Shown here piece after piece: positions 1 through 3,000 of a stretch of DNA of 47,493 bases. Position numbers: made by a program. The DNA lies in the UHGV virus genome UHGV-0021965. One strand, given 5' to 3'. The DNA comes from a virus. Every line of letters starts with the position of its first letter. Positions within the stretch are counted from its first letter, which is position 1.

Positions 1-3000
1 ACGGGTTATGGAGGGGGGATTTCTCGAAAAGAATGGCTCATTGAGCATGAGAGAAATAACGTTTAATGGCGTGATGCACCAGTGCCGCCGGGAATTTTAT
101 GGGCTTCGCAGGGCAAGTTGAGGGCACAAAAAAGCCCGCAGGGCTTGCACCGTGCGGGCTTTCAGGACTTCATCAGTCGACTCTGGTGATCGCTGATGGA
201 GAATTTTGGTGGAGCTGGCGGGAGTTGAACCCGCGTCAAAAGTTGCCTAACTACTTGTTTTTATTGTGGTCATGTTCATCCATGAATTCTGCGTAGCTTT
301 TACGTACTCTTTGAATTCGTTGCGCTGTTCTACTGAGACTTGGTGAAAAAGTTAACCTGAATCCGGCTTCAATAGTATCGTTTTTTTGGCTAGTTCTGGT
401 ACATACAAAACTGGAGGTAAACACCTCCTTTCTTTTTACACCAGTGATATCTTCATAACTTAATGTTAAAGTGGGGCCCACAATGGGTAAGTACATTCCA
501 ATCGGAGACTTTGAGTGCTCCGAAAGATAATATGCCAAAAGCATTGGGATTATATTTGGTAATGTTAAATATGTCTCTTTGCTGCTAACTGACCATGGCA
601 AAATGTAATCTACATCTTTATATTTATTGTCATGGCTAAACCAAGCAGTTTTACCATTTCCTAACAAATGTATGAGTTCTGAGTTAATTTCCTTTGAATA
701 TTGAAATGCGTAGCTATTTGAATGGATATAGTCTAAATACTTTTTTGTGCTCAAGTTTATTTCATCACTTACGAATTCCAATCCGATCTTCTTAAAATGT
801 TTGAAGTAATCAAAGTTCCAAGAGTATTCAAATTTTAACGCTGGCCCTAACCCAATGTTAATGAGTGGTGGATTCATGGTGAACTCACTACTATCATTTG
901 TAAGGTCAATAAACTTTTTTATGTTTCTTCTCGCTAGGTTAACCTCGACACCTTTTAATGTTATTTGAACCTTATTTGCTATTCTCCGTTGGATAATATT
1001 TTGTCGTATCGCTAAATAAGCTGCGAAGGCGGATAATGTGCTAGCAACAAGCCCTCCTACTCCCACCCAAGCTGGATCTGCCATCTTGATATCCCTTCTT
1101 TTCTAAAAAGAAGGGATTATTTGCCAAGATCAACCTTTTTTCAATTGAATATTTGTTGTGTTATTGTCGTATTCCTTGAGATAACGTCCGTAGTGACGGA
1201 ATAGCATTTCTGGGCCTTTGTGACCCATCTGAGCCGCTAACCAGAAAAGGTTTACACCACGACTGATCAGCCGTGTAGCGTAAGTGTGCCGGGTTTGATA
1301 GGGGTTGCGATACCTGATACCGGCTTTCCTTAGCGTTGGCACCCAAGCTTTTTTCCTGATGGCATCCGCGCTTGCCCATGGTTTATTTGTCTTCGGATCC
1401 TCAAAGACACAACCGTCCTTCATGAAGCTGAAGGGCTTTTGATCGTCGAGGGCGATCATCGCCTCATCAGTTAATTCTACCTTGCGCGTTCCAGCCTTTG
1501 TTTTGGTCCCCTTCGTCACGCCTGACACGCTGGCGCTCTGTACATGCGCTGTCTTCCCAACAAAATCAATATCTCTCCAGCGGAGCGCACACAGTTCGGA
1601 ACTACGCAACCCTGTCTGGATTGCAAACCTGAATAGGTTCTCCCACTGTTTATTGCCTGTTGATGTTAACAGCGCGCTCACCTCAGCTGGTGATAGCGGA
1701 TCGACAATGTAGCGACTTTCTGCATCGCTCTTATTGCTTTGGTACCGTGATGCCGTGACCAGTGAAACTGGGTTGATTTGCAACACCCCATCAGTAACAG
1801 CTTCATCAAGTGAGGAGCGTAGAAACGATAACTGGTTACGTATCGTCTTCAATGTTGTTTTCTGATTCTGTATCCATGTTTTTAATGCTGCTGGTGTTAA
1901 CTCACTGGCAGGGAAAATGTGAAGTTCAGACAGCGCGCTACGGCATTTTTTATACCCGCCAATGGTGGAGGGGGAAAGATTCCTCGTTTCGCAGATCTTC
2001 AAGTATTCATCGAGATACATTTTCACTGTTTTCCCGGTCGCAGCATTACCGAAAATTTTTAACCTCACTGAACGAGGGAAATACTCAGCGTAGATAAATG
2101 TTCCACGCTCGATTTTATTGTGGATTTCGCCGAGCGTACGCTCGGCATATTTAAGGTTTTTGTTGTTCACTTCTAGATTTGAAAGGGGTTCTCTGCATTT
2201 CACCCCCTTGTATGTGAACGTTATATTAATGGTTTCACCACTGCTGTGCTTCCTTATGGTTACACCGCGTGGGAGTTTAGGCGATTCTTTCGTGCCCATT
2301 TTGCAACCTCACTAAGATCTATCCATCTCTCCTTAACGCCTTCAACCTTAAGTACCTGCACCCCTTCACGCCAAACGCCGCGCTGTACACGCTTATTGAT
2401 CGCATCTGGGGTTTCGCCAGTCTCTTTGCAATAAGTTGAGATGGGAACACAATCGAGGCTCAGCATATACTTCTCCATTAACCCGGCTGCACCCGAGTAA
2501 TTAAAATTTGTCGCTGGTGGTAGGGATCAGTTTCTGCCAAATTGCTGACACATATTTTGCCTGGTGTCGCGCATCAGCTAGGGCATTGTGCACATCGCCA
2601 ATAAAAGGCATGTCACGCTTCGGATCGAAACCGACACTGCGACCGAGCGTAACAATAGTGCGCACATCGTGATCGTTCCAAAAGGCCCAAGGGCAAATGT
2701 TGCCGGCGCGTTCGTAAGCTCCCCGCAGAATCACATTGTCAAAGGTGGCACCGTTACCCCAGACCTTCATGTATTTTGGATTATCTGCGTGCCGGTGAAT
2801 GAAATGGCTAAGTTCCGACAGTGCATCAGTGATAGGCATCGCATCATCAACACAAATAGCTGAGCGTGCTTCCGGGCTTTGTTTTAGCCACCAAAGAATT
2901 GTTTCTCCATCCGGTACCGCGCCTTGAGCCATTGCGCTTTCAAGCGAGACGGCCGTGTAGAATTCTTGGCCAAGTTCACCTGTTTGAGGATTAAAAAAGA

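Follow-up and report, generated by a model that had tools for sequence, protein, structure and literature searches.

P2 and P4 prophages carry defence hotspots, membrane-anchored superinfection-exclusion proteins are encoded beside int (lactococcal Sie2009, Ltp of S. thermophilus and SieA of P22), and phage lambda regulates int through a downstream hairpin (sib/tI). Phage morons are recognised by their presence or absence among close relatives, a deviant base composition, an own promoter and terminator, and expression from the repressed prophage (PMC3594210). For IS10, PMC13181058 (citing Davis, Simons & Kleckner 1985) states that the transposase is protected from external promoters by fold-back inhibition. 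Moreover, cassettes of Vibrio chromosomal integrons carry phage defence, and a V. vulnificus cassette for a 'small transmembrane protein' is reported to confer resistance to T4 (bioRxiv 10.64898/2026.03.17.712381). Here we report on a gene for a 277-amino-acid (aa) protein, referred to as the cargo gene, which is located between int and the attachment site (att) in UHGV virus genome UHGV-0021965, a stretch of 47,493 nucleotides (nt) that as a whole is called the window.

The best explanation of our data is that the cargo gene is a self-contained module (a moron) situated between int and the arm sites of attP, the phage attachment site. A hairpin covers its ribosome-binding site (RBS), and silencing by this hairpin of only those transcripts that read through from int is a more likely reading than a brake in the gene's own messenger RNA (mRNA). 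For the explanation as a whole, i.e. a cargo module with its own promoter, read-through masked by the hairpin, and a membrane-located exclusion or abortive-infection protein as its product, we put the chances at even. The window is one lambdoid prophage of approximately 47.2 kb integrated in ssrA, the transfer-messenger RNA (tmRNA) gene; its minus strand, read leftwards, has the early-left genes, an excisionase-like open reading frame (ORF), int and then the cargo ORF. The gene is on the minus strand, downstream of int and transcribed towards att, as a correction to an earlier description made from the sequence alone (the first-pass annotation). Given the repeat of the ssrA 3' end on one side and int on the other (Table 1), the cargo gene fills the int-att gap. 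It is AT-rich, as that annotation had it, with a GC content of 0.32-0.39 compared to approximately 0.50 in the flanks, and it encodes one hydrophobic helix near the N-terminus.

The first-pass annotation also described a hairpin with a 10-bp stem that ends 6 nt ahead of the ATG and holds the only Shine-Dalgarno (SD) run; its position and SD content agree with our analysis, and the stem was found to comprise 12 bp (Table 1). Taken by itself, the window sequence does not give a significant fold (z = -1.68; equally good in 13 of 200 shuffles). However, the helix is kept while its sequence changes, as was observed for 15 distinct upstream regions and again for 28 distinct homologous loci, with arm pairs such as CCCTTC/GAAGGG, CCTGCC/GGCAGG, CCTCAC/GTGAGG, CTCTATCC/GGATAGAG and CCCCATCAG/CTGATGGGG, loops of 3-13 nt, and stems that are perfect helices of 10-12 bp (-10 to -21 kcal/mol). 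In the alignment of the 28 sequences 89.0% of the cells pair, compared to 39.6-51.2% when the partner is slid, and at 10 of the 12 pairs both partners have changed (70 cells). None of 500 shuffles reaches the covariation score of 0.575 (0.261 for shuffles), and RNAalifold returns the same helix. These compensatory changes show that the hairpin is not due to chance, despite the weak single-sequence fold. The ten core pairs comprise 245 Watson-Crick, 18 G·U and one A·C cells, and the 18:1 ratio of G·U to A·C points to an RNA of mRNA sense as the selected structure.

The SD runs of the homologues (AGGGA, AGGAA, GAGGA, AGAGA or GGGGA) are without exception part of the 3' arm, at a distance of 4-8 nt to the start codon, and homologues located away from int have a free AGAGGAAAA SD and no hairpin. 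This fixed spacing, together with the absence of the hairpin away from int, ties it to translation of the gene when the gene is downstream of int. Together, the alignments show a putative RBS-masking helix that has been maintained by compensatory evolution and always holds the SD. With respect to the type of element, the Rfam search at gathering score gave no family in the window other than tmRNA, and at E ≤ 10 only chance-level matches. The tail after the stem is AUAUCAAGAUGG, the terminator scan calls neither strand, and the tails of the variants are not U-rich. Three candidates were rejected: an RNA thermometer or known cis-regulatory RNA (perfect stems, no Rfam match), an intrinsic terminator (the U-tract is missing after the stem), and a conserved leader peptide (the loops often carry stop codons).

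A promoter-like element precedes the hairpin. Specifically, all 30 distinct variants have TTGNNN followed by RATAAT after exactly 17 nt, and the -10 ends 31-33 nt ahead of the start codon (16 variants measured) with its last two bases opening the stem. The pairwise identity is 0.98 for the -10 and 0.90 for the -35, compared to 0.55 for the spacer and 0.68 for the upstream int coding sequence, and the variants of the first set all use TTG for the Leu encoded within the -35 (16 of 16). In the outermost pair, the A contributed by the -10 (alignment column 10) is invariant while its partner changes without compensation, which argues for a constraint on this A other than pairing. Loci with a degraded int have retained the element, which follows the family gene rather than int and is absent from all other cargo types. 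As judged from these alignments, a promoter-like TTGNNN-17-RATAAT element is invariant and abuts the 5' arm.

We infer that this element would be the cargo gene's own sigma-70 promoter. Transcription would then start approximately 7 nt past the -10, inside the 5' arm, and give a native mRNA without this arm, with a leader of approximately 25 nt and a free SD, which would be translated in the lysogen. RNA that reads through from the early-left operon and int would carry the full hairpin and have its SD masked, such that cargo expression would be insulated from prophage induction as well as from int expression. There is no terminator between the cargo stop codon and att; the native ssrA terminator would stop transcription in the lysogen, and a hairpin with a run of seven Ts beyond attP would do so in the phage form (Table 1). 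The predicted SD accessibility is 0.00-0.33 in the read-through RNA versus 0.13-0.95 for starts at +5 to +9 (0.17-0.72 at +7), and with a start at +7 it increases in 16 of 16 variants.

Several points weigh against this reading. In two variants (L007 and L009) the predicted SD accessibility barely rises without the 5' arm, and a consensus scan of the window gave six promoter matches where 5.7 are expected by chance. The first position of the -10 is always A or G, never the consensus T, the initial transcribed region of the window is pyrimidine-rich, and the putative promoter is called from sequence conservation only. Moreover, other cargo modules in the slot also start with a stem-loop right after int, and a function at the 3' end of the int mRNA may be added to, or take the place of, the one proposed for the hairpin. 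As a separate observation, the early-left operon encodes a DksA/TraR-type zinc-finger protein, and it is conceivable, as pure speculation, that this phage factor acts on the promoter-like element, which has a C-rich discriminator (AATAAT-CCC).

The first-pass annotation suggested that the hairpin holds translation off until it is opened. A role in translation is borne out by an SD that is always in the 3' arm of a selected RNA. The assumption that the hairpin is present in the gene's own mRNA fared less well: the invariant -10 overlaps the 5' arm and a start approximately 7 nt further on would exclude this arm, and hence a brake in the own mRNA is not supported as formulated. According to that model translation is low or off until the structure is opened by temperature, a small RNA, a protein or binding of the 30S subunit to a standby site on the upstream AAAUAAU. 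We consider it unlikely, albeit the strongest of the rivals: the stems are stable, the conserved single-stranded and A/U-rich AAAUAAU could be a standby site, and a transcription start further upstream is compatible with the present data. However, the perfect stems are free of thermometer-type mismatches and have no Rfam match, and the invariance of ATAAT and of its 17-nt distance to TTG (30 of 30 variants) goes beyond what a standby site requires, for which an exact sequence is not necessary. In addition, remnants in K. pneumoniae (see below) have only a truncated int and an insertion sequence (IS) upstream, and there the conserved element is therefore the only evident promoter.

A terminating ribosome shields approximately 9 nt past the stop codon, and the gene could be translationally coupled to int if ribosomes ending at the int stop melt the base of the stem on the read-through mRNA; production of the cargo protein would then require translation of int. 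The commonest class of variants fits this geometry, with the int stop ending 8 nt before the -10 end and approximately 6 nt before the stem, and the SD core is paired with the start of the 5' arm. The distance between the element and the int stop is nevertheless not conserved (-8, -11, -14 or -38 relative to the -10 end, with -14 in the window), a terminating ribosome would at best open approximately 3 bp or fewer and none in the window, and the module persists where int is a pseudogene. Because the distance from stop to stem varies, coupling is kept as a weak rival and is improbable in our view.

Equally improbable as the main function is a role for int, in which the stem-loop would protect the 3' end of the int mRNA from exonucleases or signal its processing or termination, and would overlap with the SD only incidentally. 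The stem-loop that starts each alternative cargo module right after the int stop and the sib/tI precedent of lambda are in keeping with such a function, and the structure could plausibly stabilise the 3' end of the int mRNA as an additional function. What argues for the cargo gene instead is that the spacing is fixed to its start codon and variable to the int stop, that the 3' arm always holds the SD, that no U-tract follows the stem, and that the hairpin is retained with a decayed int and travels with the family gene rather than with int. Finally, the inverted repeat might be an operator in the DNA, bound by a dimeric regulator, or act through the other strand as a terminator of antisense transcription from att, since it is a palindrome and its reverse strand reads a stem-loop plus ATTATTT, yet this was rejected as most improbable given the 18 sense-strand G·U versus one A·C, arms and loop lengths that vary freely unlike a protein half-site, a tail that is an exact ATTAT and not a T-run, and a terminator scan without a call.

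Table 1. Positions of features in the window and occupants of the interval between int and attP in related loci (L numbers are locus identifiers; the fourth column gives the number of surveyed loci)
Feature	Position	Strand	Loci	Remarks
Cargo gene, 277-aa protein	251-1084	minus		ATG start; PHROG 7259 only
RNA hairpin over the RBS	1091-1117	minus		12-bp stem, 3-nt loop; 5' arm 1117-1106, loop 1105-1103, 3' arm 1102-1091; ends 6 nt ahead of the ATG
SD-like run GAAGGGA	1098-1092	minus		Wholly within the 3' arm; only SD-like run
-10-like hexamer AATAAT	1116-1121	minus		Consensus scan; 3' end overlaps the start of the 5' arm by two bases
-35-like hexamer TTGAAA	1139-1144	minus		Consensus scan; within the last int codons
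Two tandem 9-nt motifs	GAGTACGTA 309-301, AGCTACGCA 298-290	minus		11 bp apart; in the last 20 ORF codons
Similar motif, other arm	~47317-47325	minus		Same orientation
Tyrosine integrase (int)	1130-2299	minus		PF12167 and PF00589
att core	207-237	minus		Displaced copy of the ssrA 3' end; exact repeat of 47418-47448
Second att core copy	47418-47448	minus		3' end of the intact tmRNA gene, other prophage end
Native ssrA terminator	132-146	minus		Terminator scan and fold; first terminator facing the cargo transcript in the lysogen
Hairpin with run of seven Ts	~47262-47290			Ahead of the AbiTii gene
DksA/TraR-type zinc-finger protein	3164-3385	minus		Early-left operon
Rv2179c-like 3'-5' exoribonuclease	2501-3073	minus		PF16473; adjoins the excisionase-like ORF
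SRAP (YedK-like) protein	44915-45598	minus		PF02586, E 7.7e-51
AbiTii-domain protein	46329-47297	minus		PF18864, E 1.3e-35; PADLOC AbiTii, E 2e-35
tRNA 3'-half-like remnant	46290-46325	minus		GGTCGGAGGTTCAAATCCTCTCGTGCCGACCA
Strong terminator	46241-46268			After the tRNA-like remnant
Slot: cargo family of the window gene			31	Very divergent subfamilies included
Slot: 594-aa AAA_15/AAA_21 ATPase	L094:3675-5456 (example)		14	Matches PtuA/GajA/AriA models
Slot: DarT (PF14487) and/or NADAR antitoxin (PF22397)	L055:3709-5028 (example)		8	Example has DarT and NADAR
Slot: pair of unknown genes (129 + 271 aa)	L070:3690-4875 (example)		8	
Slot: empty			6	att core 67-79 nt past the int stop
Slot: contig end			5	<300 nt from int
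Slot: ParA-like three-gene set	L085:3924-5849 (example)		4	
Slot: two unknown genes (307 + 378 aa)			2	
Slot: DUF4760 membrane protein	L086:4076-4981		1	
Slot: unclassified			1	

The region between int and attP was surveyed in the 80 closest integrase relatives in IMG/VR (86-99% identity) of the 499 that were found (Table 1). Some of these close relatives have the slot empty and others have it filled in another way, which identifies the window gene as cargo. The int-attP interval is a variable cargo slot that is also used by defence genes, including DarT-NADAR and the PtuA/GajA/AriA-like ATPase, in agreement with the proposal in the first-pass annotation that this is a place for defence or lysogenic-conversion genes; several of the alternative occupants belong to no known family. 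Among the relatives the int homology stops after ...YLKEYD(G/N)xT, approximately 10 codons ahead of the stop, and the last approximately 10 int codons differ by cargo type (window 1130-1160 versus L044, L055, L070, L094 and others). Hence, the mosaic joint of the slot is inside int and each module brings its own int tail.

The other end of the cargo gene reaches into the attP arm. Its last approximately 80 nt (approximately 25 codons) have a DNA identity of 0.56-0.74 compared to 0.38-0.44 in the ORF body, and here two tandem motifs are present (consensus RRNTACKYA), with a similar motif on the other arm; the background frequency is 0.23 per kb and strand. These three motifs are probably arm-type Int sites of attP, and with such sites in the end of the ORF the C-terminal helix of the protein, which is absent from Vibrio homologues, would be encoded by attP-arm DNA. 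In relatives with an empty slot the homologous pair AAGGAGCCGTAAAGGAGCCGCAG abuts the int stop, which suggests that the integrase body and the arm sites flank the point of cargo insertion.

The protein is a member of a large uncharacterised family. As stated in the first-pass annotation it has no recognisable domain: there was no match in Pfam, NCBIfam or PADLOC (PADLOC-DB 2.0, 0 hits), and the sole profile match was PHROG 7259 'unknown function' (E 2.4e-47; residues 5-277 on positions 7-277 of the 277 in the profile). A word-indexed search returned 22 enterobacterial clusters, every one annotated as hypothetical, and an exhaustive profile search returned 549 clusters at E ≤ 1e-3, with 109 at E ≤ 1e-10. 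Nearly all of these are 230-290 aa and have the same architecture. In 113 diverse members N76, G78 and A82 (an NxGxGxA motif) are invariant, and A19, Q32, R33, P39, G80, W89, P163, P176 and D212 near-invariant. Searched with these 113 members, PADLOC gave only three singleton hits (E 0.005-0.009) and Pfam only marginal singleton hits. A profile search of PDB sequences gave ribosomal-protein noise only, Foldseek against BFVD found only uncharacterised or 'transmembrane' phage proteins, and a scan of genome contigs gave no confirmed relative. No homology to a known integrase-associated accessory protein was found in these searches.

Only one phage record has a homologue, LLS (PQ299149), where gene 31 is part of the order int, gene, attP in tmRNA. 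LLS is a lambdoid phage that integrates in ssrA, and gene 31 is not discussed in its description (PMC12315714). Both the window gene and the LLS homologue are absent at the DNA level from 5,426 complete E. coli genomes. In two K. pneumoniae loci, L010 (GCA_041860915.1) and L011 (GCA_014902875.1), the cargo gene, the promoter-like element and the hairpin are intact while int is reduced to approximately 99 codons with an IS3-family element upstream; the gene is positioned beside smpB/ssrA (approximately 3.3 kb from smpB in L010), and the cluster to which these loci belong has 197 member sequences. An intact gene beside a decayed int, in a cluster of this size, argues that the cargo gene outlives its prophage.

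Distant homologues (profile E approximately 1e-42) are single-gene integron cassettes in V. vulnificus with attC repeats on both sides. The same cassette occurs in four different neighbourhoods (L019-L022), every copy starting with GTTATGTGTAAGAGGAAAAATG right after the attC site, and these homologues have no C-terminal helix, promoter or RBS hairpin. That they are single-gene cassettes argues that the gene acts without a dedicated partner. No V. cholerae homologue was found in our searches, and in the accessible part of the Vibrio integron source none of the tested cassettes, the one for T4 resistance included, could be linked to the cargo family. Yet another homologue is present at a prophage end, adjoining tail-fibre and umuDC-like genes.

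The protein is predicted to start with a short acidic N-tail and one transmembrane (TM) helix, to continue with basic juxtamembrane residues (RQNIIQRRIANK) and a β-sandwich domain, and to end in a C-terminal helix. The best 19-aa hydrophobic window starts at residue 8, and the AlphaFold2 model, which was computed with a deep alignment (predicted local distance difference test, pLDDT, 93.1; predicted template modelling score, pTM, 0.85), has a helix at residues 4-36, a β-sandwich with inserted helices, and the C-terminal helix at residues 252-270. The number of K+R residues flanking the TM helix is 0.37 on the N side versus 3.7 on the C side, the C side being the more positive in 111 of 113 members. 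By the positive-inside rule this bias predicts an N-out/C-in topology with the domain facing the cytoplasm. In the close subfamily a face of small residues is conserved on the TM helix (G8, G10, G11, A14, S15, S18, A19, A21 and A22), which suggests that the helix may pack against others rather than be a mere anchor. The ratio of nonsynonymous to synonymous substitutions (dN/dS) is 0.11-0.27 in the eight measurable pairs, with dS of approximately 1 or more in six of the eight, and such low values show, at the level of sequence divergence, that the cargo gene encodes a real and constrained protein under purifying selection.

With respect to the prophage ends, the repeated tmRNA 3' end is 31 bp, and the tmRNA gene holding the second copy is cut by the window end. 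The att core at 207-237 is approximately 90% identical to enterobacterial ssrA flanks; bases 101-207, host DNA downstream of ssrA, match E. coli with an identity of approximately 90% and a K. pneumoniae record with 94%. The window as a whole is not E. coli DNA. The early-left genes include, apart from the DksA/TraR-like gene and the excisionase-like ORF, an Rv2179c-like exonuclease gene, and a gene for an SRAP protein is located close to the right prophage end. Directly across attP from the cargo gene is a gene for an AbiTii-domain protein, which means that accessory genes are present on both sides of attP. Its true start is probably the GTG at 47249, with the hairpin carrying the run of seven Ts ahead of it, and just past the gene is a remnant resembling a tRNA 3' half, followed by a strong terminator. 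ARAGORN called no tRNA at the remnant, which looks like an old att scar and suggests that the AbiTii module came from another integrative element.

Given the location, mobility and autonomy of the cargo gene, phage exclusion or abortive infection is the candidate function. We have lower confidence in the corresponding steps of the mechanism, according to which the product would be anchored N-out/C-in in the inner membrane by its TM helix with the conserved small-residue face, would carry a putative cytoplasmic, Ig-like β-sandwich, and would exclude phages or abort infection as a single protein. For the function of the protein, phage exclusion or defence is our best guess and the weakest step of the explanation. 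A more far-reaching and doubtful possibility is that the family constitutes a new and widespread single-protein anti-phage system, i.e. an inner-membrane-anchored sensor-effector with a cytoplasmic β-sandwich that moves between int-attP slots of prophages and integron cassettes, and whose phage version has a fold-back RBS mask that would restrict synthesis to mRNA from the gene's own promoter in the lysogen and prevent it on early transcripts of the induced phage.

If correct, the locus would be an example of a prophage that uncouples a cargo gene from its own lytic transcription by means of a promoter nested in an RBS-masking hairpin, an arrangement so far documented for insertion sequences. 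The family (549 clusters, no Pfam entry) is the commonest occupant of a slot that otherwise has DarT-NADAR and PtuA/GajA-like genes and is for this reason a promising candidate for a new role in phage exclusion or defence. Moreover, both ends of the gene appear interlocked with the integration machinery, the -35 being in the int tail and the C-terminus probably derived from attP arm sites, which is relevant to cargo exchange at hotspots close to att. What appears to be new is thus a moron with an IS-like fold-back control, which we infer, and an uncharacterised protein family as a defence candidate.

In comparison with known systems, the cargo gene resembles the phage morons (the HK97/HK022 concept; HK97 gp15, lambda bor and lom) in being an extra gene that is missing from close relatives, with a foreign GC content, apparent promoter and terminator signals of its own, a membrane protein as its product and a position at the prophage end. 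It differs in that the window -35 is within the last int codons and the 3' end of the ORF within the putative attP arm sites, i.e. it is interlocked with the integration machinery and not free-standing, and an RBS hairpin is to our knowledge not a described moron feature. Fold-back inhibition was reportedly described for IS10 and IS50 by Davis, Simons and Kleckner in 1985. As in these elements, an inverted repeat masks the RBS and the native promoter is placed such that its transcript would lack the 5' repeat, only read-through being silenced, with the cargo start deduced from the promoter geometry; unlike in IS10/IS50, the gene is a phage cargo gene downstream of int and not a transposase, and there is no antisense RNA partner.

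The similarity to retroregulation of lambda int (sib/tI) lies in a conserved stem-loop just past int in a lambdoid phage and in an effect that would depend on the promoter used. The cargo stem (10-12 bp) is however too short for an RNase III site, is positioned before and not beyond attP, and holds the SD of the next gene; a better sib/tI analogue is the separate terminator-like hairpin beyond attP. Like the Vibrio defence cassettes, the family includes attC-bounded single-gene cassettes in V. vulnificus, which unlike the phage version lack the C-terminal helix, promoter and RBS hairpin. Finally, the locus resembles the P2/P4 hotspots and the Sie2009, Ltp and SieA loci in having a fixed slot by the integration module, an interchangeable cargo of one or two genes that includes recognised defence genes, and a membrane-anchored single protein.

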